The notes beneath the pieces are model-generated. The model saw nothing but the letters and a program-made list of their open reading frames with translations, did no database searches and had not been told where the DNA came from. Positions 27,087 through 57,278 of a DNA stretch of 64,000 bases are shown here, in pieces. This DNA is from Lachnospiraceae bacterium (GTDB taxonomy: Bacteria > Bacillota > Clostridia > Lachnospirales > Lachnospiraceae). The DNA lies in assembly GCA_028727605.1 (NCBI GenBank), contig JAQYOA010000018.1, positions 22,550 to 86,549 of the forward strand. Reading direction: 5' to 3'. The translations under genes and the position numbers were made by a program. Within the stretch, counting starts at the first letter, position 1. Each line of letters opens with the position of its first letter.

Positions 27087-28088
27087 ATGGCTGCAACGAC
27101 TGATATTGGAATTGACCTTGGGACGGCCAGTATCCTGGTATTTGCCAGGGGAAAGGGTATTGTGCTCAAGGAGCCGTCTGTAGTTGCATATGATAAAGAC
27201 GCTGATAAGGTGAAGGCGATCGGAGAAGAAGCCAGACAGATGATCGGACGGACACCCGGAAACATTATGGCCATCCGCCCGCTGCGTCAGGGTGTAATTA
27301 CGGACTTTCTGATTACAGAACGTATGCTGCGTTATTTTATACAGAAAGCGATGGGGAGAAAAGCTTTCCGGAAACCGAGAATCAGTATCTGTGTTCCGTC
27401 TCAGGTGACTGAGGTGGAGCGAAAAGCAGTGGAGGAAGCGACTTATCAGGCGGGTGCCAGAGAAGTTCTGATTGTTCCGGAGCCGGTGGCTGCGGCGATC
27501 GGGGCGGGAATTGACATTACCAAGCCCTGTGGAAATATGATTGTGGATATCGGAGGAGGAACAACCGATATTGCGGTAATTTCTCTTGCGGGAACAGTGG
27601 TATCGAATTCGGTTAAGCTGGCAGGAGAAAACTTTGATCAGGCGATTATCCGCTACATTCGGAAAAAGTATAATGTTTTTATCGGGGAGCAGACAGCGGA
27701 GGCTGTCAAAATACGCATTGGATCCGCATATCCGAGAGCGGAAGAGAAGACGATGGAGGTGCGGGGAAGAAATGTCATCACAGGTCTCCCAAAAACCATC
27801 ACGGTCTCTTCGGGAGAAATCAGAGAGGCACTTTCTCCGATTACATCACAGATCGCGGATGCGGTTTGTGCAATCCTTGAAAAGACGCCTCCGGAGCTGG
27901 CTTCGGATGTGGCTGATCGGGGAATTGTCCTGACCGGCGGAGGAAGTTTGCTGGACGGCGTTGAGGAATTGATACAGGAGAGGACAGGAATTGACACTAT
28001 GACGGCGGAAAACCCGGCCTGTGCCGTGGCTCTTGGAACAGGGCAGTACCGCGAAGTTATGGCGGAATTTGAGAGTCGGTTTTCATGA
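27087..28088 (+). CDS. mreB: Rod shape-determining actin homologue (MreB/Mbl paralogue)
   Basis: IGIDLGTAS, EPVAAAIGAG, VDIGGGTT and LTGGGSLL motifs. No mreC/mreD is adjacent, so it is probably an Mbl-like paralogue. Confidence 0.85.
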   Translation: MAATTDIGIDLGTASILVFARGKGIVLKEPSVVAYDKDADKVKAIGEEARQMIGRTPGNIMAIRPLRQGVITDFLITERMLRYFIQKAMGRKAFRKPRISICVPSQVTEVERKAVEEATYQAGAREVLIVPEPVAAAIGAGIDITKPCGNMIVDIGGGTTDIAVISLAGTVVSNSVKLAGENFDQAIIRYIRKKYNVFIGEQTAEAVKIRIGSAYPRAEEKTMEVRGRNVITGLPKTITVSSGEIREALSPITSQIADAVCAILEKTPPELASDVADRGIVLTGGGSLLDGVEELIQERTGIDTMTAENPACAVALGTGQYREVMAEFESRFS

Positions 28089-30334
28089 TGGAGAAAGAGA
28101 GAGTTGAGGGTTATGTGGAACACATAATCTTTCGGAACGAAGAAAATGGCTATACAGTTTTGAACCTGGCGATGGGGACCTCCGAGCTTACCTGCGTCGG
28201 GAATCTTCCCATGATCGGAGAGGGAGAACTGATTGAAGCGGTCGGAGTATACACAGAACATGCAACATATGGTCAGCAGTTCCGCATAGAATCCTATGAG
28301 ACGAAAGTCCCACAGGATTCTGTTGCTTTGGAGAGATACCTGGGATCGGGCGCAATCAAAGGTGTCGGAGCAGCGCTGGCGGCAAGAATTGTCCGTCGTT
28401 TTGGAGAGGATACCTTGAGGATTCTGCAGGAAGAGCCGGAACGGCTTTCCGAGGTGAAAGGCATCAGTGAGCGCAAGGCGCGGGAAATCGCGCAGCAGGT
28501 ACAGGAAAAATCGGAAATGCAGAATGCATTGATTTTTCTGTCCGGATATGGAATTGCGCTGAATCTGGGGGTGAAGATTTATCAGCAGTATGGTGATAAG
28601 ATGTACCGGATTCTGAAAGAGAACCCTTATAAAATGGCGGAGGATATTCCAGGGGTTGGATTCCGGACGGCGGATGAGATTGCAGGGCGGATCGGGATCA
28701 CCGTCAACAGTGAATATCGGATTAAGAGCGGACTGTGTTACATACTGAATCAGGCGTCTGCGCAGGGTCATGTATATCTCCCGGAGCGGATTCTCTTTGC
28801 ACGTGCAGCGGAACTTCTCGGAGTCGGGACAGACGATATGGAGATTTATCTGTCTGACCTGGCGATGGAGCGAAAAGTAATCCGGAAAGAAATTCCGGTG
28901 ACAGAAGAGGAAACGGAGCGGATTGTATATACAAGAGAGTACTATTATCTGGAACTCAATACAGCGCGGATGCTTCATGAATTGAATATCAGATGTGAGG
29001 AAAACCGGGAAGAAATCGAAAAACGGGTTGCTGCCATAGAAAAAAACAAGAAGATTGAACTGGACGAGATGCAGAAAACTGCAGTGATCGAGGCTGCCGT
29101 CAACGGCCTTCTGATTCTGACCGGAGGACCGGGAACCGGAAAGACGACTACGATTAATACGATGATTCACTACTTTGAATCAGAAGGACTTGATATCTTT
29201 CTCGCAGCACCCACCGGAAGAGCAGCCAAGCGGATGACCGAGGCTACCGGATGCGAAGCCTGTACAATTCACCGGCTTTTGGAACTGTCCGGGATCATGG
29301 AAGAATCCTCTTCCAATGTTCATTTTGAGAGAAATGCAGAGAACCCTCTGGAGGCAGATGTAATCATCATAGATGAGATGTCCATGGTGGATATTCATCT
29401 GATGCATGCACTGCTTTTGGCGATTGTGCCGGGAACCAGGCTGATTCTTGTGGGAGATCAGAATCAGCTGCCAAGCGTCGGACCGGGCAGCGTACTGCGT
29501 GATCTGATCCGTTCGGACTGCTTCCCGGTTGTGAGACTGACCCACATTTTCCGTCAGGCATCTCAAAGTGACATTGTAGTCAATGCCCATAAAATTCACA
29601 ATGGGGAAAAGGTACTTCTGGATAATAAAAGCAGAGATTTCTTTTTCCTGAAACGGTATGATGTCAATGTAATTCAAAAGGTTATTATCGCTCTGATTTC
29701 AAGCAAGCTGCCTTCCTATGTGGATGCAAGACCCCAGGATATTCAGATTCTGACTCCGATGAGAAAAGGAGCGCTTGGTGTGGAGAGCCTCAATCAGATT
29801 CTCCAGAAATATCTGAATCCGCCCTCGGATGATAAGGCGGAACGGGAATTTGGATCCGGCATTTTCCGTGAAGGGGATAAGGTCATGCAGATCCGTAATA
29901 ATTATCAGCTGGAATGGGAAGTGCGCGGTATCAACCAGGTTTGTGCAGAGAAAGGGATGGGTGTCTTCAACGGAGATATTGGAGTGATTCGAAGCATTAA
30001 CCCTTATACGGAAATCATTACGGTGGAGTATGACGAAGGAAAATTTGCGGACTATACATTTAAACAGGCAGATGAACTGGAACTTGCTTATGCGACAACG
30101 ATTCATAAGGCGCAGGGAAGTGAGTATCCGGCAGTGATTCTGCCGATTCTGGGAGGCCCCCGTATGCTGATGACCAGAAACCTTTTGTATACCGCAGTTA
30201 CAAGAGCAAGGAAATGTGTAACGATTGTCGGCAGTGATGTGACTTTTGAAGCAATGATAGAGAATCACATCGAAGAAAACCGTTATACCACATTGGCGCA
30301 GAGAATTCGGGAAATGAATACTCTGTCTGTGTAA
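28085..30334 (+). CDS. recD2: ATP-dependent RecD2 DNA helicase
   Basis: N-terminal OB and HhH regions; GGPGTGKTT, DEMSM, GDQNQLPSVG, TIHKAQGSEY and LYTAVTRA motifs. Confidence 0.95.
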   Translation: MMEKERVEGYVEHIIFRNEENGYTVLNLAMGTSELTCVGNLPMIGEGELIEAVGVYTEHATYGQQFRIESYETKVPQDSVALERYLGSGAIKGVGAALAARIVRRFGEDTLRILQEEPERLSEVKGISERKAREIAQQVQEKSEMQNALIFLSGYGIALNLGVKIYQQYGDKMYRILKENPYKMAEDIPGVGFRTADEIAGRIGITVNSEYRIKSGLCYILNQASAQGHVYLPERILFARAAELLGVGTDDMEIYLSDLAMERKVIRKEIPVTEEETERIVYTREYYYLELNTARMLHELNIRCEENREEIEKRVAAIEKNKKIELDEMQKTAVIEAAVNGLLILTGGPGTGKTTTINTMIHYFESEGLDIFLAAPTGRAAKRMTEATGCEACTIHRLLELSGIMEESSSNVHFERNAENPLEADVIIIDEMSMVDIHLMHALLLAIVPGTRLILVGDQNQLPSVGPGSVLRDLIRSDCFPVVRLTHIFRQASQSDIVVNAHKIHNGEKVLLDNKSRDFFFLKRYDVNVIQKVIIALISSKLPSYVDARPQDIQILTPMRKGALGVESLNQILQKYLNPPSDDKAEREFGSGIFREGDKVMQIRNNYQLEWEVRGINQVCAEKGMGVFNGDIGVIRSINPYTEIITVEYDEGKFADYTFKQADELELAYATTIHKAQGSEYPAVILPILGGPRMLMTRNLLYTAVTRARKCVTIVGSDVTFEAMIENHIEENRYTTLAQRIREMNTLSV

Positions 30335-42970: not shown

Positions 42971-44125
42971 TCATGCACCTGCCTGACGGTTTCCGCCGCT
43001 GGCCATTTCCAGCATCTTATTTTTGATTTCATTTTCGAGCTGTACCAGTTCTGCCTCAGCCGCCCGCCGTTTTTCACGGCCGTCCTGCTGGATTTTCATC
43101 ACTTCATCCAATGTAGAGATCAAGGTCTGATTAGTGGATTTGAGGGTTTCAAGATCCACAATACCGCGTTCGGATTCTTTTGCGGTTTCGATGGTTGCAG
43201 TTTTCAGATTTGCTGCATTTTTCTTCAAAAGTTCATTGGTCATATCGGTGACCTGGCGCTGTGCTTTTGCAGCTTCTGTGGAATGATGAATGCCAAGTGC
43301 GATAACCATCTGATTCTTCCAGAGAGGAATCGTATTGACGAGGGTGGACTGAATTTTTTCTGCCATCACAGCGTCACTGTTCTGAATCATACGGATCTGC
43401 GGTGCGGTCTGGATGGAAACCATACGGGTCAGTTCCAGGTCATACAGTTTTTTCTCAAAACGAGTGCAAAGGTCTTCCAGATCCTTTGCCGCCTGAGCGT
43501 CCTCTGCCAGTCCCGACAGCTGAGCTTTGCGCTGGAGCTCGCAAAGATCTGTAGAACGCACCAGATCCAGTTTCTTTTTTCCGGCCAGAATGTACATTGT
43601 GAGTTCTTTGAAGTAATTGAGATTCTGAGCGTACATCTGATCCAGAAGTGCGATATCTTTGAGCAGCTGACGCTGATGATCCTCCAGAACATCACAGATT
43701 TTATTGACGTTTACTTCCGCTTTATCGTATTTCGATTTCATTGCATTGAGTTTGCTGGAACTCTTCCGGAAGAAGGAAAACGGTCCTTTTTCTTCTTCGG
43801 CATCAAAGGATTTCAGCTCTGTCACAACGGAAGAGAGCAGATCGCCTACTTCCCCGAGATCCTTTGTCCTGACATTCTCCAGTGTTTTTTCAGAAAAATC
43901 CGCCATTTTTTTCTGGGCGCCGGATCCGTATTGAAGAATTCCGTTGGTATTGGTTAAATCGATCTGAGAAACAAAATTGTCAACCATTTGTTTCTGCTCT
44001 GCTGAGAGGACGGAATCATCCAGTACCTCTGCTTTTGGTTGAGCGACAGGACGGGCCGGTTCAGGCTCCGGGATTCCAAAGCTTAAAGTTGGTGTTTCGT
44101 TTAATACCTTCAAATCTTCACTCAT
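42971..44125 (-). CDS. Toxic anion resistance protein (TelA/YaaN family)
   Basis: ILQYG..AQKK, QTAPQIRMIQ, NTIPLWKNQM and ERGIVD.ETL motifs; coiled-coil. Confidence 0.92.
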   Translation of the reverse strand: MSEDLKVLNETPTLSFGIPEPEPARPVAQPKAEVLDDSVLSAEQKQMVDNFVSQIDLTNTNGILQYGSGAQKKMADFSEKTLENVRTKDLGEVGDLLSSVVTELKSFDAEEEKGPFSFFRKSSSKLNAMKSKYDKAEVNVNKICDVLEDHQRQLLKDIALLDQMYAQNLNYFKELTMYILAGKKKLDLVRSTDLCELQRKAQLSGLAEDAQAAKDLEDLCTRFEKKLYDLELTRMVSIQTAPQIRMIQNSDAVMAEKIQSTLVNTIPLWKNQMVIALGIHHSTEAAKAQRQVTDMTNELLKKNAANLKTATIETAKESERGIVDLETLKSTNQTLISTLDEVMKIQQDGREKRRAAEAELVQLENEIKNKMLEMASGGNRQAGA

Positions 44126-44156
44126 GATAGTTCTCCTTTTCACTGTGTAGAGTTGG

Positions 44157-45350
44157 TTATTGCAAATGAAGTCCGTTCATTCCCTTGCCCGTCAGTCCTT
44201 CCTGCGCGAGCATAGCTTCCAGAACGGAAATATCGGATGAGATATCCCATGCGGTTGTCTGGAACAGATCATTCAGAAGTTTTTCAAAAGCCTCATTAAT
44301 CGTGTCAAGGGTCTGTTCAATTTCTTTCTTGGTTTTCCGGATATTTTCACTTTGGATGGGTTCCCGATCGAAATTCCGGTAGGAATCAAGAAGCTTCCAG
44401 GTTGTCGGCATATAGTAATCCATGAATTTTCGAAGCTGCGCAATTTCTTTCGGGCGTTTTTTTGCTTCACTTAAAATTCGTGTCACCACCAACTCCAGAC
44501 GGCTCAGTTTGGAAGAAATGACTTCTCCCGGAAGATCTTCATTGCACTGATGAATTTTGTGAATATAGTCTTCGCATTCGGCAAGCATCTCCTGATATTC
44601 GAGTGTCAGTCCGGAAGCTTCCAGCTCTTTTTTTCGTTTCTCCTGCTCCAGCTGCTGCTGGTATTGATGCTCCAGAAGCTCCTGATACTGATGGTAGCAG
44701 TTGTTGGTCACCATCAGACAGGTGTTGTCTTTATCCAAATGTCCCTGACGGAACATGGATTTCTCAATCATACGGGAGAGTTCAGGCAGAAGCTCTTCCC
44801 GGGTAAGATTCATGCGGTCTGAGAGTTCCCCAAGAGAAATATATTCTCTCGAGCCCAGGATACTGCAGATCTGTCGGAAATGGCGCACCAGATTCCGATT
44901 CTTCTTTCCCTTCCGAATAAAAATACTTCCGGTTCCGGTGAGACCGAGAAAGACAGCAAGGAGAATCAGAAGGACAGTGTGAAAACCGCCGCCGATCAAA
45001 GCGATGAGAATGCCAAGGCTGGCAAGACCGAAAATTCCGGAAAGAAGTCCCCCTACGGTAAGCTGAAAACCTCCGGTGAAGGTAAGATCCGATGGAGCCA
45101 TGAAACGTTCTTTGTTTTGCATGCGCAAAGTCATCCACTGGTTTAGACCGGGCTTTTGTACTGTATTTTTTTCCGGGGCGGAAGAACTGCCGTCTGCACG
45201 GTAAGGTCCCTGACGGCTGGGATATACAAACTGGTTAATTGTCTCTGATATTTTCTGATTTAATTCCTGAAAATTCTGGGAATTGACTGCATTATCTACC
45301 AGTCGGCCGATGCTGTCGCCGACATCTTTCAAATCATCTTCAAAACTCAT
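44157..45350 (-). CDS. XpaC-family (5-bromo-4-chloroindolyl phosphate hydrolysis) membrane protein
   Basis: Two TM segments and C-terminal LRKFMDYYMPTTWKLLDSY...DISSDISVL; classical partner upstream of telA/yaaN. Confidence 0.82.
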   Translation of the reverse strand: MSFEDDLKDVGDSIGRLVDNAVNSQNFQELNQKISETINQFVYPSRQGPYRADGSSSAPEKNTVQKPGLNQWMTLRMQNKERFMAPSDLTFTGGFQLTVGGLLSGIFGLASLGILIALIGGGFHTVLLILLAVFLGLTGTGSIFIRKGKKNRNLVRHFRQICSILGSREYISLGELSDRMNLTREELLPELSRMIEKSMFRQGHLDKDNTCLMVTNNCYHQYQELLEHQYQQQLEQEKRKKELEASGLTLEYQEMLAECEDYIHKIHQCNEDLPGEVISSKLSRLELVVTRILSEAKKRPKEIAQLRKFMDYYMPTTWKLLDSYRNFDREPIQSENIRKTKKEIEQTLDTINEAFEKLLNDLFQTTAWDISSDISVLEAMLAQEGLTGKGMNGLHLQ

Positions 45351-46660: not shown

Positions 46661-46700
46661 GAAGATCAATGCGATATTCTGCAGAGAGGTGAACAAAAGG

Positions 46701-49700
46701 ATGGAGAAAAGTTTTCAGGAAGTTTTCCCGAAGTTAAAAACGGAGGGTGCCCTGTCAGAACTGCTGGAGAGTGTGGAAATTTCCCGGATTGCAATTAACA
46801 AAAAGAAGGATTTACTGCGCGTGTATCTGGTCAGTCATCAGTGGATTCATAAAAAGTATATCTATCAGCTGGAGCGGGAAATCAAGGGACAGCTGTTTGG
46901 TGAAGTACCATTGATGGTCAGAATCATCGAGCGATTTTATCTGTCCAGGCAGTATACACCGGAGAATTTTCTGGAGGTGTATCATGACAGCATTCTGCTG
47001 GAACTGAAAAACTACAGCATTTTCTTATATAATCTCTTTTCGAATGCCAGAATCACATTCCCGGAGACGGATACTATGCATCTGGTTCTGGTCGACTCTG
47101 TCATTGCCAGGGAGAAAGAAAGCGAACTGGTACGAATTCTGGAGAAAATTTTCTGTGAGCGCTGCGGCTTTGATTTGAAGATTCAGACAGAACTCCTGAA
47201 GATGGAAGGCGAGAGCAAAGCCATGAAAAATTCTGAATTAAAGATTCAGGAAGAAGTGAGGCATGTTCTGGCGAGAACACATCTTGGGGAGCAGCTGGAG
47301 GAGAAAAAGCGGAAGGAAAAACAGGAAGCAGCGAAACATCCGGATGGACACACAGCGGAAAAAGCGGAGCAGGAAAAGTGGAAAAACAAAAGAGGAGCGA
47401 AAGGCGGATTTGGAAAACGAATGGAGGATCAGCCGAGAAAATCTTCCAATCCGGATGTGGTTTACGGGCGTGATTTCGACGATGAGTGTGTGGAAATCCT
47501 CTCAATCGGCGATGAGATCGGAGATGTGGTTATTCGGGGCCGGATTCAGAGTGTAGATACCAGAGAAATCCGGAATGAACGAACCATTTTTATGTTTACG
47601 ATCACTGATTTTACAGATACCATCTCCGTAAAGCTGTTTGTGTCGAACGGGGAAGTGCCGGACATGAAAGCAGCTATCAAACCGGGCGCATTTCTCAAGG
47701 TGAAAGGAAAAACAACAGTGGATTCCTTTGACCATGATTTGACCGTAATGTCAGTCTGGGGCATCAAGAAAATTACAGATTTCCGTACAGGGCGCAGGGA
47801 TACCAGCCCGATGAAGCGGGTGGAACTGCACTGCCATACCAAGATGAGTGATATGGATGGAGTCACAGATGCTGCAAAACTGGTAAAGCGCGCCTATGAA
47901 TGGGGACATCCGGCAATTGCGATCACGGATCACGGCGTTGTTCAGTCATTTCCGGAGGCAAATCACGCCATGGAAGATATTGACGGTGCTTACAGGAAGA
48001 AATATCAGCAGGAGCATCCGGAGGCGACCAAGGAAGAGCTGAAGAAAGTATCTGCTCCGTTTAAAGTGATTTACGGGATGGAAGCTTATCTGGTGGATGA
48101 CCTGAAAGATGTGGTGGTAAACAGCAAAGGGCAGAGTATCCACGGGGATTATGTCGTATTTGATATTGAGACGACAGGTTTTTCTCCTGTAGTCAACAAA
48201 ATCATCGAGATTGGTGCTGTCCGTGTGGAGAACGGGGCAATTGTGAAGAAATTTTCGACCTTTGTAAATCCCAAAGTTCCGATTCCGTTCCGTATTGAAA
48301 ACCTGACGGGAATCAATGACAATATGGTGCTCGATGCGCCGGAGATTGAGACGGTGCTGCCGCAGTTTATGGAGTTCTGCGAGGGAGCTGTGATGGTAGC
48401 TCATAATGCCTCTTTCGATATGAGTTTTATTGAGCATAACTGCGCGCTTCTGGGTATTGAGCGGGAATTCACGACCGCAGACACTGTGGCGATGGCACGG
48501 TTTCTGCTTCCGGGATTGAACCGGTTTAAGCTGGATACTGTGGCAAAGGCGGTGGGAGTGCCTTTGGAGAACCATCACAGAGCCGTGGATGATGCAGGAT
48601 GCACAGCGGAAATTTTTATCAGGTTTGTAAAGATGCTGGAAGAGAGAGGAATTTCCACACTGGACCAGCTGAACGCAGAGGGCAAGGTTTCTGAGGAGGC
48701 AATCCGAAAACTTCCGACTTATCATGCAATTATTCTGGCGAGAAATGAGACCGGAAGGGTGAATTTATACCGTCTGGTGTCTGAGTCACACCTGAAATAT
48801 TATAATCGGCGGCCGAGGCTGCCCAAAAGTGTATATCTGAAATACCAGGAAGGACTGATGATCGGATCTGCCTGTGAAGCAGGAGAACTGTATCAGGCCA
48901 TCCTTCGGGGAGAATCGGATCCGGAAATTGCCCGTTTGGTTGACTTTTATGATTATCTGGAAATTCAGCCCCTGGGGAACAATGCATTTATGATCAACAG
49001 CGAAGATGTTTCGGCTGTCAACAGCGAGGAAGATCTGATTGAAATAAATAAAAAGATTGTGAAACTGGGAAATCAGTTCAAAAAACCGGTAGTTGCCACC
49101 TGTGATGTGCATTTTATGGATCCCGAGGATGAGATTTACAGGCGGATTATCATGGCCGGAAAGGGGTTTGATGATGCCGATCAGCAGGCTCCGCTTTATC
49201 TGCGCACGACGGAGGAGATGCTGGAGGAATTTTCCTATCTGGGGAGTGAAACAGCGGAACAGGTTGTGATTACCAATCCGCAGAAAATTGCAGATATGGT
49301 AGAAAAAATTTCCCCCATCCGTGCCGGAAAGTTTCCGCCGGTCATTGAGGATTCGGACAAAACACTCAGGCGAATCTGCTACGACAGAGCACATGAAATC
49401 TACGGAGAAGATCTGCCGGAAATTGTTTCAAGCCGGCTGGAACGAGAGCTGAATTCGATCATTTCCAATGGATATGCGGTGATGTATATCATCGCTCAGA
49501 AGCTGGTTTGGAAGTCCAATGAAGACGGTTATCTGGTGGGATCCCGCGGATCGGTTGGTTCTTCTTTTGTGGCGACGATGGCCGGTATTACGGAAGTCAA
49601 TCCGTTAAGTCCTCACTATTACTGTGAAAAATGTCATTACAGTGAATTTGATTCCCCGCGTGTCAAAGAATACGTGGGAAGAGCGGGCTGCGATATGCCG

Positions 49701-51227
49701 GATGCCGTTTGCCCGAATTGCGGCGCTCCGTTAAAGAAAGCCGGATTTGATATTCCTTTTGAGACCTTCCTGGGATTTAAGGGAAACAAGGAGCCGGATA
49801 TCGACCTGAATTTTTCCGGAGATTACCAGAGTAAGGCACACAAGTATACAGAGGTTATTTTTGGAGCCGGCCAGACCTTTCGTGCCGGTACAATCGGTAC
49901 GCTGGCAGATAAAACGGCATTTGGCTATGTGAAGAATTATTATGAAGAGCGGGGTCAGCATAAACGGAACTGTGAGATTGACCGGATTGTGGAAGGATGT
50001 ACCGGAATACGGAGGACGACAGGCCAGCATCCCGGAGGAATTATTGTGCTTCCTTTCGGAGAGGACATCAACTCTTTTACACCGGTTCAGCACCCGGCGA
50101 ACGATATGACAACCGATATTATTACGACACATTTTGACTATCACTCGATCGATTCCAATTTGCTGAAACTGGATATTCTCGGGCACGATGATCCTACTAT
50201 GATTCGAATGCTGGAAGATATCACAGGTCTGGACGCACAGACAATCCCTCTGGATAATCCGGAGGTGATGTCGCTGTTCAAGAGCACAGAAGCGCTGGGG
50301 ATTAAACCGGAAGATATCGGAGGCTGTCCCCTTGGATGTCTGGGTGTTCCGGAATTCGGAACGGATTTTGTTATTCAGATGCTTCTGGATACTAAACCGC
50401 AGTCCTTCTCGGATCTGATTCGAATTTCCGGTCTGTCTCATGGAACAGACGTGTGGCTTGGAAATGCGCAGACACTGATTGAGGAAGGAAAGGCAACGAT
50501 TTCCACTGCGATCTGTACCCGTGACGATATTATGATTTACCTGATTGATAAGGGGCTTGAGAGTGAGCTGTCCTTTACCATTATGGAAAGTGTCCGTAAG
50601 GGAAAAGGACTAAAACCGGAATGGGAAGAGGAGATGAAAGCGCACAATGTCCCGGACTGGTATATCTGGTCCTGCAAAAAGATTAAATATATGTTCCCGA
50701 AAGCACATGCAGCTGCTTATGTTATGATGGCTTACCGTATTGCTTATTACAAAATTTTCGAGCCGCTGGCTTATTATGCAGCCTATTTTTCCATCCGTGC
50801 ATCTGCATTTTCCTACGAATTGATGTGCATGGGACGGGAACGCCTCGAATACTACATGAAAGATTATGAGAAACGCAAGGATACTCTCTCCAAAAAAGAG
50901 CAGGATACGATGAAGGATATGAAAATTGTTCAGGAAATGTATGCCCGGGGATTTGATTTTGTTCCGGTAGACTTGTATACGGCCAAGGCGCATCTGTTTC
51001 AGGTGGTGGATGAGAAACATCTGATGCCGGCACTGGATTCTATCGAAGGTCTGGGAGATAAAGCAGCCGACGCAGTTGTGCTGGCTGCCAGAGATGGAAA
51101 ATTCCTTTCCAAAGATGATTTTCGGGATCGCACGAAAGTGAGTAAATCCGTGATTGATTTTATGGATGATCTGGGCGTGTTTGGAGACATTCCGGAGAGC
51201 AATCAGTTTTCACTGTTCGACTATTGA
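46701..51227 (+). CDS. polC: DNA polymerase III alpha subunit, PolC type
   Basis: OB fold; PHP domain (ELHCHTKMS, AITDHG); embedded exonuclease (FDIETTG, HHRAVDD); VGSRGSVG, PDIDLNF and YMFPKAHA motifs. Confidence 0.98.
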   Translation: MEKSFQEVFPKLKTEGALSELLESVEISRIAINKKKDLLRVYLVSHQWIHKKYIYQLEREIKGQLFGEVPLMVRIIERFYLSRQYTPENFLEVYHDSILLELKNYSIFLYNLFSNARITFPETDTMHLVLVDSVIAREKESELVRILEKIFCERCGFDLKIQTELLKMEGESKAMKNSELKIQEEVRHVLARTHLGEQLEEKKRKEKQEAAKHPDGHTAEKAEQEKWKNKRGAKGGFGKRMEDQPRKSSNPDVVYGRDFDDECVEILSIGDEIGDVVIRGRIQSVDTREIRNERTIFMFTITDFTDTISVKLFVSNGEVPDMKAAIKPGAFLKVKGKTTVDSFDHDLTVMSVWGIKKITDFRTGRRDTSPMKRVELHCHTKMSDMDGVTDAAKLVKRAYEWGHPAIAITDHGVVQSFPEANHAMEDIDGAYRKKYQQEHPEATKEELKKVSAPFKVIYGMEAYLVDDLKDVVVNSKGQSIHGDYVVFDIETTGFSPVVNKIIEIGAVRVENGAIVKKFSTFVNPKVPIPFRIENLTGINDNMVLDAPEIETVLPQFMEFCEGAVMVAHNASFDMSFIEHNCALLGIEREFTTADTVAMARFLLPGLNRFKLDTVAKAVGVPLENHHRAVDDAGCTAEIFIRFVKMLEERGISTLDQLNAEGKVSEEAIRKLPTYHAIILARNETGRVNLYRLVSESHLKYYNRRPRLPKSVYLKYQEGLMIGSACEAGELYQAILRGESDPEIARLVDFYDYLEIQPLGNNAFMINSEDVSAVNSEEDLIEINKKIVKLGNQFKKPVVATCDVHFMDPEDEIYRRIIMAGKGFDDADQQAPLYLRTTEEMLEEFSYLGSETAEQVVITNPQKIADMVEKISPIRAGKFPPVIEDSDKTLRRICYDRAHEIYGEDLPEIVSSRLERELNSIISNGYAVMYIIAQKLVWKSNEDGYLVGSRGSVGSSFVATMAGITEVNPLSPHYYCEKCHYSEFDSPRVKEYVGRAGCDMPDAVCPNCGAPLKKAGFDIPFETFLGFKGNKEPDIDLNFSGDYQSKAHKYTEVIFGAGQTFRAGTIGTLADKTAFGYVKNYYEERGQHKRNCEIDRIVEGCTGIRRTTGQHPGGIIVLPFGEDINSFTPVQHPANDMTTDIITTHFDYHSIDSNLLKLDILGHDDPTMIRMLEDITGLDAQTIPLDNPEVMSLFKSTEALGIKPEDIGGCPLGCLGVPEFGTDFVIQMLLDTKPQSFSDLIRISGLSHGTDVWLGNAQTLIEEGKATISTAICTRDDIMIYLIDKGLESELSFTIMESVRKGKGLKPEWEEEMKAHNVPDWYIWSCKKIKYMFPKAHAAAYVMMAYRIAYYKIFEPLAYYAAYFSIRASAFSYELMCMGRERLEYYMKDYEKRKDTLSKKEQDTMKDMKIVQEMYARGFDFVPVDLYTAKAHLFQVVDEKHLMPALDSIEGLGDKAADAVVLAARDGKFLSKDDFRDRTKVSKSVIDFMDDLGVFGDIPESNQFSLFDY

Positions 51228-51247: not shown

Positions 51248-51276
51248 TTGCATTCTTTGACGGCATGGTTTATAAT
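51248..51276 (+). promoter_or_regulatory. Putative sigmaA promoter of the three-gene unknown operon
   Basis: TTGCAT-17bp-TATAAT. Confidence 0.65.
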
Positions 51277-51348
51277 CGTACCGTATAGTTATGAGGAAAC
51301 AGATACGAAGATGGATAAATTTCCTGAAAAGGCAATAAGGTGAATACA

Positions 51349-54300
51349 TTGAAGAGAAGATTGGAACAACTGGTAAACGGAAGATTTGAATATGAGGTTC
51401 CGCATCTGCTCCTCTCGGTTACAGAAATCTCGCTTACTCTTGTTGAGGGCCATAATTACCGTGGAGAACTGGGGATCGGAGCAGAGGACGGAAGAAAAAT
51501 ACAGGGTTTTGTGACAACGGATCATCAGAGAATCATTCTGGCAAAGGACCGTTTCCTGGGCACTGTCAGTACAATCGAATACGGAGTGGACATTACCGGA
51601 CTTGAGGCCGGAGATGTGATATCGGGAACCATTACTGTCAGCAGCAGCATTGAGGAACGTCAGATTCCGGTGACAGTCCGGGTAATGGAGGCACAGCTAA
51701 ACAGTTCGGTGGGAGAAGTCGGAACTCTGGAAGAATTTGCACGTCTGGCATCAAAGAATTTCCGGGAGGCGTTCGGCCTTTTTACAAAACCGGAGTTTGT
51801 GAAACTGCTGGGAGGCAGCAACCGGCAGTATCTGTCACTGTATAAAGGTATGGCTCATAATCCGGTAACTTATCAGCATCTGGAAGAATTCCTGGTGTCT
51901 TCCGGGAAAAAGGAACCTGTTAAGCTGACTCTGGATCAACAGAAAAAACAGATTTACAGCATAGAAGATACGCAGAAGGATACGCTGTATCTGTATAAAA
52001 ATACGTGGGGCTATGTCCGAATGGAAATCGAAGTGATCGGTGATTTCCTGGAAGTTGACAAGACGGTTGTGACTTCGGAAGATTTCATCGGGAGCGTATA
52101 CGGACTGGAATATATTATCCGGAAAGAGAAGCTTTCCTCCGGCCGCCATTACGGAAAAATCATCATCCACAATGTGCATCAGCAGCTGGTCTTTGAGATA
52201 GAGGCTTCTCCTGGCGGTGTAAAAGGCAGACCGATGGAGCTGGAGGAAGAACGGATTCTGGCGGAACTGACCAGAGGTTATCTGGATCTTGCAGTGCACA
52301 GAACAGATTACCGCAGCTGGTATGAGAATTCCTGGGAAAAGGTACAGGCTCTAAGAAAGATATCCGGAAGTACGCAAAAGGTGTTATTCTGGGAAGCTTA
52401 TCTGTATGAGACAAATGAGGAAGAGGAAAAGGCGGCGGAAGTGCTGCAGAGAATGCGTGATCTGCAGATTCCGCTCACCAATGGTGTGGAACAGGGAATC
52501 TATGTGTATCTGGCGAAAAAAGCAGGTGTGCGGAAAATCAGCCATGCAGAAATGCTGCGTGAGATTCAGGGATTTTACCGGCAGGAACCAAACAGTCCGA
52601 TTCTGCTGAAAATCCTGACCGAAATTGATGACACCGGGAAAGAGTCACTGACCAGATGGCTGTATGCGATGGAGCAGTGTTATGAGATGGGATGTACCAG
52701 TCCGCTGCTCTACCTTATGGCAGCGAATCTGCTCTTGCGCCAGGAGGGTCAGCTTCGGCGAATGTCTGACTTTATGATCCAGGTTCTCAGATTCACGCAG
52801 AGAGAACATTTGCTGACAGAGGAGCTGCTGAAAAGAGCTGCTTATCTGACGGATCATGGGAAAACGTTCAATGAAGCGATTTATCGGTTCCTCTGTAAAG
52901 GGTATGAGCAGTTTCCGTCAGATGAAGTGCTTGAGGCGATCTGTAAACTGATTATGAAGGGCCATCCGACACAGGAGAAATATTTCCGATGGTATGCGCT
53001 GGCTGTGGAGCATAATATCAGAATTACCCGTCTGTATGAATACTACATTGAAACGATGAGCCGTGATTTTGAAGGGCTTCTTCCTCAGGCTATTCGCATG
53101 TATTTTTCCTACAGTAATACCCTTTCCAGCAGAAAAAAGGCATTTGTATATGCAAACGTCATCCGAAATAAAGAAGCGGATGAAGCCACCTATGAAAGCT
53201 ACCGGGATGCAATGATACGGTTTGCCAATGAGCAGATTTTGAAAGGGCGTATGAACGATGATTACGCGTTAATTTACCGGGAATTTCTGGAAGAACCGGG
53301 AGATCCCAAAACTGCAAAAGCCATCGCGGAAGCGCTTTTTACACGGAAAATTATCTGCCGTGACAAGAACATCCGCCAGGTAGTTGTCTGCCATAATGCC
53401 ATGGAAAAAGAGACCTCTTATCCGGTGACGGACCGGATTGCTTATGTCCGGATTTACAGTCCGGATGCCCGGATTCTGCTGGAGGATGAAAAGCGAAGGC
53501 GGTTTGCAACAACGGTTGAGTATACAGAAGAACCTTTAATGGAATGTCATGAGATGGCAAAATCCTGCGGAAAATATCAGGTGGAGAATCCGGGGCTTCT
53601 CTTGCATCTGTGTCATGAAAGCTCCTCACAGATGGAGCTTTCCGAATCCAATCTGTCCTGGTACCAACAGGCTGCTTCCTGCAAAGAATTTACAAAAGAA
53701 TACCGCTGCCTGATTGAGAAAAAACTTCTGGAATACTATCTGGCACATGAACGGGACATGGCAGTGGAAGCAGCGGTTTTTGCACTGGATGATCAGGAAT
53801 ATGCCAGAGTGGATAAGGCAGCTGTTATGAAACTGCTGGTAGACCAGGGACTGTATACGCGTGCTTTTGATCTTGCAGAAAAGTTTGGATACGAGAAGGT
53901 TCCTGCAGACTGTCTCTTACGTCTGGCAAGTCATATGATTTTAATCAGGGAACTGGCCGAGGAGGAAGAACTCTTGTATCTGGCTTCCTATGTGTTTGAT
54001 CAGGGATTGTATGACGAAATTCTGCTCTGTTATCTTCGGGATTATTATGTTGGTCCTGTCGAAAAAATGTGCAGGGTCTGGGAGAAAGTGAAAGGCTTTC
54101 AGATGGAAAGCGATAAACTGGAAGAACGGATTCTGACCTGGTCCATGTTTGTCAGAAAGTATCCAAAGCAGGACCAGAAGATACTGGAAAGCTACATTAT
54201 GCAGACCGGTCGCGAAACGGTGATACTGGCTTATATTACCTATATTTCAATCGGTTACTTTATGGATGACTACGATGTCTCGGATCAGATGTTTGAGTAT

Positions 54301-54879
54301 CTGGAGAGAATCTATGAAAGAAAGTGGAAGCTGGATGAGATCTGCCGACTGGCACTTCTGAAGTATTATGCCGGAAAAACGGAACTCACTGATCGCCAGA
54401 TTCAATATGCGGCGGCCTTCCTTCATGAATTTAATCAAAAGGGCCTGCGGTTCTCATTTTATCAGAAACTTCCGGCTTTTCTGACAGAAGCCTACCAGGT
54501 GGATGACAGAATCTTTGTGGAAGAGCGGTTTTCTGCAGAGGATAAAGTCATGATTCATTACCGTATCGGAGCCGAAGGCAAATGGAAAGACGAACCGATG
54601 TTGAATATGTATCAGGGACTTTTTGTGAAAGAATTTCTGTTATTTTACGGGGAAAAACTGGACTACTATCTGACTGTGGAGAGTAGAAACGACAGCAGGG
54701 AATACCCGAAAAAGACGATCTGTATGACAACGAACCGGGAAGACGGAATGACCAGGTATCAGCTGCTGAATAAGATACTGGCTGCGAAAACCATAGGAAA
54801 CAAGGAAAAAACAGCCGATGCTGCCAGAGTATATCTGCAGCAGGAGGCACTGGTGCACAGCTGTTTTAAAATGCTGTAG
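51349..54879 (+). CDS. Large uncharacterised cytoplasmic protein (two N-terminal Ig/BACON-like beta domains, long helical repeat region, C-terminal beta sandwich; resembles the DUF5717 family)
   Basis: Open frame of about 1176 aa with genome-typical codon style. TTG start 6 nt after AAGGTG; no signal peptide. The family name is from recollection and unverified. Confidence 0.75.
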   Translation: MKRRLEQLVNGRFEYEVPHLLLSVTEISLTLVEGHNYRGELGIGAEDGRKIQGFVTTDHQRIILAKDRFLGTVSTIEYGVDITGLEAGDVISGTITVSSSIEERQIPVTVRVMEAQLNSSVGEVGTLEEFARLASKNFREAFGLFTKPEFVKLLGGSNRQYLSLYKGMAHNPVTYQHLEEFLVSSGKKEPVKLTLDQQKKQIYSIEDTQKDTLYLYKNTWGYVRMEIEVIGDFLEVDKTVVTSEDFIGSVYGLEYIIRKEKLSSGRHYGKIIIHNVHQQLVFEIEASPGGVKGRPMELEEERILAELTRGYLDLAVHRTDYRSWYENSWEKVQALRKISGSTQKVLFWEAYLYETNEEEEKAAEVLQRMRDLQIPLTNGVEQGIYVYLAKKAGVRKISHAEMLREIQGFYRQEPNSPILLKILTEIDDTGKESLTRWLYAMEQCYEMGCTSPLLYLMAANLLLRQEGQLRRMSDFMIQVLRFTQREHLLTEELLKRAAYLTDHGKTFNEAIYRFLCKGYEQFPSDEVLEAICKLIMKGHPTQEKYFRWYALAVEHNIRITRLYEYYIETMSRDFEGLLPQAIRMYFSYSNTLSSRKKAFVYANVIRNKEADEATYESYRDAMIRFANEQILKGRMNDDYALIYREFLEEPGDPKTAKAIAEALFTRKIICRDKNIRQVVVCHNAMEKETSYPVTDRIAYVRIYSPDARILLEDEKRRRFATTVEYTEEPLMECHEMAKSCGKYQVENPGLLLHLCHESSSQMELSESNLSWYQQAASCKEFTKEYRCLIEKKLLEYYLAHERDMAVEAAVFALDDQEYARVDKAAVMKLLVDQGLYTRAFDLAEKFGYEKVPADCLLRLASHMILIRELAEEEELLYLASYVFDQGLYDEILLCYLRDYYVGPVEKMCRVWEKVKGFQMESDKLEERILTWSMFVRKYPKQDQKILESYIMQTGRETVILAYITYISIGYFMDDYDVSDQMFEYLERIYERKWKLDEICRLALLKYYAGKTELTDRQIQYAAAFLHEFNQKGLRFSFYQKLPAFLTEAYQVDDRIFVEERFSAEDKVMIHYRIGAEGKWKDEPMLNMYQGLFVKEFLLFYGEKLDYYLTVESRNDSREYPKKTICMTTNREDGMTRYQLLNKILAAKTIGNKEKTADAARVYLQQEALVHSCFKML

Positions 54880-54895
54880 CAGGAGGGAAAATACG

Positions 54896-56143
54896 ATGGA
54901 ACTGAAGAACTTAATACTTGGTTTCGATTTTGGGGAGAATTATTCGCAGCTCTGCTGCTACGACAGAAATGTCAGGGATGCGGTGTCTCTTCCTGAAAAA
55001 GCCGGATCGGATGTTATGCTGATTCCGACCAAATTGGGAAAGGCGCTCGATCATGAAGAATGGCAGGCCGGTTCTGATGCACGGAAATTTGCCGGAGATC
55101 AGAACGGGGTTCTGCTGGATAGGATCTATGAGATTTGCATCGGAGCAAACCCCTGCATGGTGGAGCAAAGGGAATATACCCCCGGGGAACTGCTTGGCAT
55201 TTTTCTGCGGGAAGTACTGAAAAAGGCAGGCATTGACCATCCGGAACTGCAGATTGCCGGGATTATGATCACAACAAAACGTCTGACACGGCCCTTTGTG
55301 GAAAATGTACGTTATGCTTATAGTCTTCTCGGAATTCCGAGAGGAAGGGCATACCTGCAGGAATACGACGAAAGCTTTTACTATCACACCATGTATCAGA
55401 AACCGGAGCTTTGGAGCAGAAAGGTAGCACTGTTTCATTTTGAGGGAGATGAAGTTGCCTTTTCAAGCCTTTCCATCAGCCGAAAAACGAAACCGGCTTC
55501 TGTGACGGTAAAACGGGGAGCAAGAGTACATCTGGGGAGAAAACCGATGGATCGGGACCGGGATTTCGGACATCTGATTTCGGAAGTGACAGGTGCGGAA
55601 ATCTATTCCAGTGCCTATCTGGTTGGAGATGGTTTTGATCAGTCCTGGGCAGGAAATTCTCTGAAACTTCTCGCAAAGAATCAGCGCCATATTTTCGGAG
55701 GAAACAATCTGTTTGCAAAGGGTGCCTGCTATGGAGCGAGAGAGAAAGTGGAAGAGCGTATGCTGAAAGGATACCTGTTCCTTGGAAATGACCTTGTGCG
55801 ATCCAATATCGGCATGGATATGATTATCAATGGATCACCTGCTTATTATCCGCTGATTACCTCGGGAGTAAACTGGTATGAGGCAGAGAAAGAATGTGAA
55901 CTGATTCTTGACGAAACGGATGAGCTGGTGTTTGTGGTGAGTTCTATGGAGGAAGGAAAGAGAAATCGTTATACGATGAAGCTATCCGGACTGCCGAAAC
56001 GGCCGAGAAAAACGACAAGAATTCACCTGAAACTGGAATATGATTCGCCGGTGACCTGCCAGATTACGGCAGAAGATCTCGGATTCGGAGAGATGTTTCC
56101 GGCTACCCACAAGGTGTGGCATGAAACCATGGGGGAGGCGTAA
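54896..56143 (+). CDS. Divergent Hsp70/actin-fold protein (resembles clostridial DUF5716-type proteins)
   Basis: N-terminal ILGFDFGENYS, YLVGDGF and FAKGACYGA motifs; C-terminal LSGLPKRPRKTTRIHL resembles the DnaK substrate-binding beta domain. ATG follows AGGAGG. Confidence 0.7.
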   Translation: MELKNLILGFDFGENYSQLCCYDRNVRDAVSLPEKAGSDVMLIPTKLGKALDHEEWQAGSDARKFAGDQNGVLLDRIYEICIGANPCMVEQREYTPGELLGIFLREVLKKAGIDHPELQIAGIMITTKRLTRPFVENVRYAYSLLGIPRGRAYLQEYDESFYYHTMYQKPELWSRKVALFHFEGDEVAFSSLSISRKTKPASVTVKRGARVHLGRKPMDRDRDFGHLISEVTGAEIYSSAYLVGDGFDQSWAGNSLKLLAKNQRHIFGGNNLFAKGACYGAREKVEERMLKGYLFLGNDLVRSNIGMDMIINGSPAYYPLITSGVNWYEAEKECELILDETDELVFVVSSMEEGKRNRYTMKLSGLPKRPRKTTRIHLKLEYDSPVTCQITAEDLGFGEMFPATHKVWHETMGEA

Positions 56144-56146
56144 AGC

Positions 56147-56917
56147 ATGAGCGGTTACATATTATGTCAGGTAAAGCGTGCCAGACATCCGTATTATATC
56201 ACAAATATCAGCACGAACATTTACTCGATTGAAGAGCTTTGCTACTATCTGTATAACAATATTTATCTGCTGGATGAAACGATCATCAACAAGGAGCTGC
56301 TGGTATGGCTGAAGGAGGAACTTCATTTAAGGAGGCTGTATCAGAAATTATCGGTTATTCTGGAGGAGAAAAAAGGGATCGGAGAGTTTATACTTCCGAT
56401 CTTTAAAGAGATTAATTACCTTTCTCACGATCAGTTTCGGGAAATGAGCGAACGACTGAAACGTTTTGAAGAGCAGCCGGAGATTGTGAGAAAGAAATTA
56501 AAAGGCGATTATCTGGTGGAGCATGAAAAATACACCAATGCAATTCGTGTTTACCAGCAGACACTGAAAGAGACGAGCGGCACCTCCATGGGGCATCAGT
56601 TTGTAGGATGCATTTATAATAATATGGGATGTGCCTATGCCAGCCTTTTCCAGATGAACGAGGCACTGGAGTGCTTCCGGAAAGCATACGAAGAACTGCA
56701 TACCCGCGCATCGCTGAAAAGCTATTTATTTGCTTTTTATATGAGTCAGGGAAAAGATGCATATGAAAAGAAAGCGGAAGAGCTGAAGGTGGATGGAGAG
56801 ACCAAGAAAGAGATGGACTCCAAAATTGTGGAAGCGATGCAGGTGGAATTGCCCAGAGATCTGGATGGAGCCCTTGCCGCCTGGACGAGAGAATACCATA
56901 AAAGCACGGGAATGTAA
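56147..56917 (+). CDS. Uncharacterised TPR-containing protein
   Basis: TPR-like helices GDYLVEHEKYTNAIRVYQQTL and IYNNMGCAYASLFQMNEALECFRKAYE; starts 3 bp after the previous stop. Confidence 0.75.
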   Translation: MSGYILCQVKRARHPYYITNISTNIYSIEELCYYLYNNIYLLDETIINKELLVWLKEELHLRRLYQKLSVILEEKKGIGEFILPIFKEINYLSHDQFREMSERLKRFEEQPEIVRKKLKGDYLVEHEKYTNAIRVYQQTLKETSGTSMGHQFVGCIYNNMGCAYASLFQMNEALECFRKAYEELHTRASLKSYLFAFYMSQGKDAYEKKAEELKVDGETKKEMDSKIVEAMQVELPRDLDGALAAWTREYHKSTGM

Positions 56918-56924
56918 AAAAGGG

Positions 56925-56954
56925 TTGACAAAAAAGCGCAATTGATTGTATAAT
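56925..56954 (+). promoter_or_regulatory. SigmaA promoter of the trp operon
   Basis: TTGACA-18bp-TATAAT. Confidence 0.8.
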
Positions 56955-56979: not shown

Positions 56980-57278
56980 TTTAAACCGATGAAGTGGAGA
57001 TAACGTTACAAGCGCACTCTCAGAGAGTCCGGGCAGGTGTGAGCCGGGCAGGAAGCGGGGTAGCAAATGGACCACGGAGGGCACAGGGAAAGGGAATAAA
57101 AGCCGGATGGCCTGATCCCGAGTATTCTGTGACGTAGGGCATACGTTAGTTGCCGGGAATATGATGGTATTCCGATGAGCGTGTGAGCATTCACAAAACA
57201 AGGTGGCACCACGGATAGTATATAATATCCGCCCTTGGCAGAGAGTTTAGATAAAATCTCTGCCAGGGGCGTTTTTTT
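56980..57278 (+). ncRNA. Tryptophan T-box riboswitch (tRNA-Trp-sensing antitermination leader)
   Basis: Stem I motifs CAGAGAG and GGTGTGA, specifier TGG at 57068-57070, AGTA motif, T-box AAGGTGGCACCACGG (57200-57214) and a downstream terminator. Confidence 0.92.
57229..57278 (+). terminator. T-box attenuator terminator
   Basis: CGCCCTTGGCAGAGA...TCTCTGCCAGGGGCG followed by TTTTTTT. Confidence 0.9.

Follow-up and report, generated by a model that had tools for sequence, protein, structure and literature searches.

What role might be played in a bacterial cell by a relative of Hsp70 that has lost its ATPase motifs and whose gene lies between those of a very large scaffold and a tetratricopeptide repeat (TPR) protein? 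The question is raised by an operon of ∼5.6 kb in a Lachnospiraceae bacterium (GenBank assembly GCA_028727605.1), found within a stretch of 64,000 nucleotides (contig JAQYOA010000018.1, positions 22,550 to 86,549 of the forward strand) that was analyzed as a whole, that we refer to as the window and from whose first letter all coordinates below are counted. Three co-oriented open reading frames (ORFs) on the + strand, denoted ORF1, ORF2 and ORF3, fill positions 51340-56917. The answer that we favor, with a probability of roughly 0.6, is that their products make up an ATP-independent complex in which ORF2, a pseudo-Hsp70, serves as a peptide clamp.

The Lachnospiraceae rank with the most abundant gut bacteria of humans and animals, and a single-copy operon that is kept by 97% of the sampled genera and that is not found outside the order amounts to a family-level trait. 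The operon would also be a clear example from nature of how an Hsp70 can become a structural protein that works without nucleotide, and a fuller multi-Hsp70 cluster, its apparent source, is still present in sister families for comparison. Its clients or partners, once found, could reveal lineage-specific cell biology along with a new use of the Hsp70 fold. Already known are catalog entries in Pfam; what appears to be new here, judging from the sequences, is an Hsp70-derived system without an ATPase.

A pseudo-Hsp70 and its two companions

ORF2 (54896..56143, + strand) starts with ATG, has AGGAGGG in front of it and encodes 415 amino acids (aa). It belongs to Pfam DUF5716_C (PF18980), with a score of 334.5 bits against a cut-off of 34.7 (E 6e-100, profile positions 2-294 of 296), and gives no match to PF00012 at E ≤0.1. 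In the AlphaFold2 model, with a predicted local distance difference test (pLDDT) score of 96.4, a two-lobed actin-fold nucleotide-binding domain (NBD, residues ∼4-290) devoid of subdomain IIB is followed by a β-sandwich substrate-binding domain (SBDβ, ∼293-413), the succession of domains that defines an Hsp70. Residues 5-413 of the model are colinear with residues 2-502 of DnaK, comprising NBD and SBDβ, with a VIA Z of 21.1 over 376 aligned residues and a Foldseek E of 6e-20, and the best superposition is with the domain-docked 'stimulating' state of DnaK. A single-sequence search of the PDB with ORF2 returned nothing; a 118-member DUF5716 profile finds DnaK chains at E 8e-5, aligning in order the N-terminal NBD and, in the SBD, the 'GIPPAPRG...DxGTG' region, and hhalign comparison with the DnaK of the same genome gives a probability of 94%. 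These results show that ORF2 descends from Hsp70 and retains both the NBD core and the β-sandwich substrate-binding domain.

Motifs were examined in an alignment of DnaK, the sister-family paralogues described below and Lachnospiraceae DUF5716 sequences, and were tallied over the 118-sequence family alignment. Both in the 118 members and in ORF2 the Thr-Thr positions of phosphate loop 1 (DxGTT) hold D, E, N, K or R, and the GGGT positions of phosphate loop 2 (DxGGGT) are variable and mostly charged, either acidic or basic. Throughout the family, ORF2 included, the residue equivalent to the catalytic Lys70 (DnaK numbering) is hydrophobic and that equivalent to Glu171 is mostly Gln. The span from the phosphate 2 to the adenosine motif is only 46-63 residues, as compared with 129 in DnaK, which is equivalent to a deletion of subdomain IIB, the part of the NBD that lines the nucleotide cleft and receives exchange factors, and is consistent with the 260-278 of ∼380 NBD residues that can be aligned structurally. 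The chain ends at residue 415, directly past the last strand of SBDβ, leaving no α-helical lid. Thus, of the canonical DnaK/DnaJ/GrpE system ORF2 shares the NBD core and SBDβ fold and a homology that is detectable with profiles, but it lacks the phosphate loops, the catalytic Lys and Glu, subdomain IIB, the lid and the PF00012 match of a functional Hsp70, and the operon in the window includes neither a J-protein nor an exchange factor. Strict invariance in DUF5716 is limited to G276 and to the C-terminal hairpin D394-x-G396-F-G398. A PF00012 search of the whole genome from which the window derives gave only dnaK and mreB.

Two side observations concern these searches. The mreB gene (PF06723, E 6e-140) is located within 27087-30334 of the window, with a RecD2-type helicase gene following it, stop and start overlapping. 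In a 670-aa database protein (P0010) Pfam DUF1538 (PF07556) is joined to a DUF5716 portion that shares 68% identity with ORF2; this protein is from a single 4.6-kb contig and may be an artifact of gene calling or assembly.

ORF1 (51349..54879, + strand, 1176 aa from a TTG at 51349) matches Pfam DUF5717_N (PF18984; 832 bits, E 5e-250, profile positions 2-872 of 875) and the C-terminal DUF5717 model (PF18983; 316 bits, E 4e-94, positions 1-306 of 306), in both cases over the full length of the profile and above the curated cut-off of 25 bits. Its AlphaFold2 model, calculated from 56 homologues with a mean pLDDT of 88.2, starts with two PapD/MSP-like immunoglobulin (Ig) β-sandwiches (residues 16-114 and 190-288 in the 1176-aa numbering) on either side of a helical insert (127-184), and continues with a TPR-like α-solenoid (297-663), a small β domain (665-729), a second TPR-like solenoid (734-1049), a β-sandwich (1051-1126) and a C-terminal helical hairpin (1136-1175). 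The N-terminal sandwiches superimpose on the PapD/MSP/ASH fold with VIA Z values of 10-12 and root-mean-square deviations of ∼2 Å over 85-100 residues, the matches including the MSP domain of VAP-A, nematode MSP, pilus chaperones, HYDIN and CEP192, while the matches of the solenoids are scaffolds of the TPR type, among them Ctr9, Ski3, Naa15 and OGT (Foldseek, low TM-score). A PDB search with the single sequence was empty, and no enzyme or catalytic domain emerged for ORF1 in any domain, profile or structure search. The models thus show ORF1 as a predicted non-enzymatic scaffold of ∼1180 aa, built of two Ig domains of the PapD/MSP type, a pair of TPR-like solenoids and small β-sandwiches. The helical insert, with its invariant NPVTYQH..EEF loop, was considered as a J-domain and rejected, as there is no HPD motif here or in the sister-family homologues, where the loop itself is not conserved.

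The DUF5717 proteins are modular across the loci that were compared (L084, L085, L088-L095, L101 and L102): in one subgroup of genera they are 1097-1111 aa long and lack ∼90 residues around profile positions 745-838, in one genus the first ∼295 profile positions are missing and in another positions ∼182-500. Between the window and a locus from a metagenome-assembled genome (MAG) named Fusicatenibacter (L003) sequence identity is 87% for polC and ispG, 81% for ORF3, 69% for ORF2 and 57% for ORF1, so that the scaffold evolves much faster than its neighbors.

ORF3 (56147..56917, + strand, ATG start) encodes a 256-aa putative TPR adaptor, with a conserved N-terminal domain of ∼110 residues, two TPRs (∼120-190) and a C-terminal tail. 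Its score against Pfam TPR_2 (27.2 bits) is borderline with respect to the cut-off of 27; in addition, a 36-member ORF3 profile matches TPR proteins of solved structure in the PDB at E values down to 2e-39 over positions 120-190, and ORF3 is therefore assigned as a TPR protein. Positions 1-110, although well conserved, have no PDB match with the family profile and correspond to no known family.

In all three proteins the most hydrophobic 19-residue window on the Kyte-Doolittle scale reaches only ∼1.0, and by this measure none has a membrane-spanning or signal-like stretch or a hydrophobic N-terminus. A first-pass annotation of the window, made from the sequence, had described ORF1 as an Ig and solenoid scaffold, ORF2 as a degenerate Hsp70-like protein and ORF3 as a TPR protein, with no signal peptide or clear transmembrane helix in any of them, and the models, profiles and hydropathy values above bear out each of these assignments. 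It had also pointed to the trio as the best candidate in the window for an undescribed system. This is correct in so far as none of the papers searched gives a function or deals with DUF5716 or DUF5717, the sole one naming either family being unrelated; the families themselves, however, have already been cataloged, ORF1 and ORF2 being full-length, high-scoring members of DUF5717_N, DUF5717 and DUF5716_C, entries to which Pfam attaches no function.

Distribution, linkage and origin of the cassette

DUF5716 and DUF5717 are each present in a single copy in the genome of the window. In a set of Lachnospiraceae genomes that includes one per genus DUF5716_C is found in 292 of 301 (243 of the 249 of high quality), nearly always once. 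A class-level sample of Clostridia, which held only two Lachnospirales genomes of other families, contained DUF5716 in 12 of 12 Lachnospiraceae and nowhere else, with none of the 384 genomes from outside Lachnospirales showing a match. The notion that the family is confined to Lachnospiraceae was overturned by an order-level sample, where 82 of 151 Lachnospirales genomes have DUF5716_C matches.

Linkage was evaluated using 80 loci from named genomes (Fusicatenibacter, Scatomonas, Oliverpabstia, Blautia and others) and 20 loci from other genera, among them the five most divergent as judged by their weakest matches. The order DUF5717, DUF5716, ORF3 on one strand is preserved in 97 of the 100 loci, which establishes that the arrangement is not due to chance, and the three exceptions comprise two contig ends and one contig from an uncultured Blautia MAG. 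In the latter (L062:1-9700) DUF5716 and ORF3 are preceded by 8.4 kb in which several short reverse-strand ORFs are found in place of DUF5717, an arrangement that may reflect an insertion, a rearrangement or a misassembly. Five high-quality Lachnospiraceae genomes are without DUF5716; four of them are also without DUF5717, and in the fifth DUF5717 is cut by a contig end, so that the genes of the cassette appear to have been lost together. ORF2 and ORF3 are moreover found as a single polypeptide in P0356 (35% identity across the whole of ORF3), in L083 and in an Atlas cluster of 93 members. A second candidate for such a fusion, P0267, was discarded as it has a low-complexity tail without similarity to ORF3, and no meaning is attached to the reading frame that ORF2 and ORF3 share in the window since it is common to only 23 of 98 loci.

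Across relatives no conserved extra partner was found in the flanks, which consist of variable housekeeping genes: an aminotransferase, an amino-acid ABC transporter, pur and trp genes and in some cases polC. Only some members of the family have polC upstream, and a downstream trp operon is limited to the closest relatives. A fourth co-oriented gene of ∼400 aa, which overlaps ORF3 or lies within 19 bp of it, does occur in four of the 20 diverse genera (L094, L097, L099 and L100); its product, which belongs to no Pfam family, has two hydrophobic segments near residues 180-215 and a charged composition like that of a coiled coil. The gene is absent from the window and, with one query, was not found in the genome of the window.

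Taken together these data show that the trio is a vertically inherited, single-copy and near-universal cassette of the Lachnospiraceae, of which the window contains an ordinary three-gene member directly between polC and the trp leader. The placement of the three genes in the core genome rather than in an island had been proposed in the first-pass annotation.

A different picture is obtained from the sister families of the order Lachnospirales, whose genomes usually have two or three tandem DUF5716_C matches in frames of ∼500-560 aa. Six such regions were examined and five (L105-L108 and L110) show a common, undescribed cluster of 7-8 genes. It consists, in order, of DUF5717, either as one gene or as two, an N-terminal one rich in Ig domains and one for the solenoid, Hsp70 paralogue A, a ∼640-aa protein with a C-terminal GrpE domain, a DUF5716-type pseudo-Hsp70 of ∼530 aa, Hsp70 paralogue B, Hsp70 paralogue C, which carries a fused VWA domain, and a ∼390-aa TPR protein of the ORF3 type. 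In the same alignment every ATPase motif is intact in paralogues A, B and C, the VWA fusion included, whereas the DUF5716-type paralogue is already degenerate but still contains a segment of the length of IIB. The scaffold, the pseudo-Hsp70 and the TPR protein are homologous to those of the window and follow one another in the same relative order; the differences are the three motif-intact Hsp70s and the GrpE-domain protein, the presence of IIB in the pseudo-Hsp70 and the greater length of the TPR protein. Because the sister cluster has motif-intact A, B and C and a GrpE-domain protein, while the genome of the window is without A, B and C, the comparison of gene content and sequence shows the Lachnospiraceae cassette to be, in all likelihood, a reduced form of this 7-8-gene cluster, in which the ATP-driven parts and the exchange factor would have been lost and the pseudo-Hsp70 and TPR protein trimmed. 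The three-protein machine proposed for the window is thus not a free-standing one.

Mode of action

How could such a reduced set of proteins function? In the mechanism that we favor ORF1, ORF2 and ORF3 would form one stable cytoplasmic complex, and a single complex is very likely given that the three genes are co-conserved and that ORF2 and ORF3 are sometimes fused. The pseudo-Hsp70 would act without nucleotide, as no ATPase, J-protein or exchange factor is left, with its SBDβ serving as a permanent clamp on a stretch of peptide that belongs to a partner or to a client. ORF3 would bridge ORF2 to the scaffold, and the Ig and TPR surfaces of ORF1 may offer further binding sites. The suggestion of a specialized chaperone module, made when the window was first annotated, is unlikely in the usual, ATP-driven sense, in view of the loss of the nucleotide motifs and of IIB and of the lack of a J-protein or exchange factor. 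The housekeeping setting points to a constitutive role in assembly or proteostasis rather than in defense.

The closest analogy for the clamp may be Ssz1, which it would resemble in the manner in which Ssz1 holds a segment of Zuotin in the ribosome-associated complex of yeast. Ssz1 and Hsp110/Sse1 are atypical Hsp70s that function as stable partners rather than as cycling foldases, the SBD of Ssz1 holding a segment of its partner, and both rank with the best structural matches of ORF2 (4gni, 5mb9, 6sr6, 3d2e and 2qxl). They differ from ORF2 as seen here in that ATP binding and subdomain IIB are retained in Ssz1 and Sse1, and their partners, the J-protein Zuotin or an Hsp70, have no counterpart in the operon of the window.

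Several observations weigh against a nucleotide-free complex of this kind. A G-x-G-F remnant resembling the adenosine motif and an Asp or Glu at the position of D8 in DnaK are conserved in DUF5716, and the loss of canonical motifs does not prove that nucleotide binding has been lost. That the three genes form a single transcription unit is suggested by spacing and synteny only, and at L062 DUF5716 lacks the upstream DUF5717.

A broader reading, which we advance tentatively and consider possible rather than probable, is that what has survived in the trio is the ATP-independent core of a bacterial Hsp70 machine, one of a class that is undescribed and limited to Lachnospirales. In its complete form this machine would comprise three active Hsp70s, one of them VWA-fused, a GrpE-domain exchange factor, the pseudo-Hsp70, the TPR adaptor and a PapD/MSP-TPR megascaffold, with no recognizable J-protein, and in Lachnospiraceae the trio might have become a self-sufficient platform for assembly in the cytoplasm, with a housekeeping role that is essential or nearly so.

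It might be argued that the trio still participates in an ATP-driven chaperone cycle by recruiting the housekeeping DnaK/DnaJ/GrpE, for example via the TPRs of ORF3, with ORF2 regulating DnaK in the manner of Hsp110 or Ssz1. Eukaryotic Hop, SGTA and CHIP recruit chaperones through TPRs, and Sti1/Hop, SGTA, Tah1 and FKBP51 are indeed among the matches of the ORF3 profile; these stand among generic TPRs, however, and designed consensus TPRs score best. A dnaK gene is available in the genome, and the three motif-intact Hsp70s and the GrpE-domain protein of the ancestral cluster imply that scaffold, pseudo-Hsp70 and TPR parts evolved alongside active Hsp70s. The likeness of ORF2 to Sse1/Hsp110 and Ssz1 adds to this case, but in complexes of Hsp110 and GrpE it is IIB that forms the contact surface and in ORF2 IIB is deleted. 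There is, furthermore, no sign of a J-domain, either as a Pfam match in the operon or as an HPD motif in the ORF1 insert or the sister-family homologues, and on balance we regard recruitment of DnaK as unlikely. We are more doubtful still of a cytoskeletal or polymer module, in which ORF2, through its actin-fold (ASKHA) core, or ORF1, through its MSP-like domains, would build a superstructure in the cytoplasm that gives the cell its shape or holds something in position. MSP polymerizes in the sperm of nematodes and ASH domains are known from scaffolds of cilia, and the resemblance of the ORF1 Ig domains to both, the very long superhelical repeats of ORF1, the ASKHA fold of ORF2 and the fourth, membrane and coiled-coil gene of some Lachnospiraceae could all be accommodated. 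Yet ORF2 is of the Hsp70 lineage, complete with SBDβ, rather than of the MreB, ParM or FtsA lineages and has no nucleotide site with which to drive polymer dynamics, and the resemblances of ORF1 are only at the level of a common β-sandwich.

The content of the cassette also recalls neighborhoods of GAP1-N2 GTPases in actinobacteria and firmicutes that contain HSP70, GrpE and an HSP70 without peptide-binding domain, together with β-sandwich repeat proteins fused to DnaJ or TPR (PMC7159879), and the grouping of HSP70, GrpE, truncated HSP70 and β-sandwich repeat proteins described there (Kaur et al. 2020, PMC7159879) raises the question of whether the trio serves in conflict or against phages, as a system akin to the Hsp70-GrpE-TPR themes of NTP-dependent conflict systems. 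The Hsp70-VWA fusion of the sister families does give a weak match to a PADLOC candidate (PDC-M61B, E 4e-7). By contrast, ORF1, ORF2 and ORF3 have no match in PADLOC-DB 2.0 at E ≤0.01, and the GTPase and effectors that define such systems are missing from the cassette and its flanks: no GAP1-N2 or other GTPase domain was found in the three proteins or in the products of the neighboring ispG, polC, trpE, trpG and trpD, and none was seen among the genes of the sister-family cluster that were scanned. The cassette is, in addition, single-copy, near-universal and vertically inherited in housekeeping surroundings, behaving as a core gene set and not as a mobile or variable one, a pattern opposite to that of defense islands, so that a role in conflict seems very improbable.

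Promoter, start sites and flanking genes

The three genes are as tightly packed as first reported, with gaps of exactly 16 bp between ORF1 and ORF2 and 3 bp between ORF2 and ORF3, and their placement between polC and trp is confirmed by the coordinates. Upstream, polC (46689-51227, preceded by ispG) adjoins the cassette. A promoter-like site at 51248..51276 (+ strand), recognized by inspection of the sequence as TTGCAT-17 nt-TATAAT, had been put forward as a near-consensus σA promoter. The site is there and its -10 element, TATAAT, is perfect, but the -35 hexamer, a weak one for the vegetative expression then envisaged, agrees with TTGACA at only three of six positions, so that 'near-consensus' overstates the match, and the site is not listed by a consensus promoter scan of the locus that required at least 4/6 matches in each hexamer. 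The scan found no terminator-like site between the polC stop (51227) and ORF1, so read-through from polC into ORF1 may occur. Rfam gave no match upstream of ORF1.

The frame of ORF1 also opens at a GTG at position 51340, which would give a protein of 1179 aa. The TTG at 51349 is the more probable start because AAGGTG is found 6 nt upstream, the N-terminus that it produces, MKRRLEQL, agrees with MKRRMEQL, the consensus of the family, and the exact ORF1 protein is represented in the database by an entry of 1176 aa (P0124). Between the promoter-like site and the start of ORF1 there is a 10-codon ORF (51312-51344, MDKFPEKAIR followed by a stop), whose TGA overlaps GTG 51340 as well as the Shine-Dalgarno-like AAGGTG; this ORF may be due to chance or may encode a small leader peptide.

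Downstream of ORF3 there is a 12/12 consensus promoter at 56925, followed by a T-box leader (56980-57239) to which the whole Rfam model could be matched with 75.7 bits and E 1e-15, a score below the Rfam gathering score of 93, and then by trpE, trpG and trpD, so that the cassette sits directly between polC and a T-box-led trp operon. Farther upstream, on the - strand (42971-45350), a gene for TelA (toxic anion resistance) adjoins one with an XpaC-like 5-bromo-4-chloroindolyl phosphate hydrolysis domain, the pair being divergent from ispG and polC.

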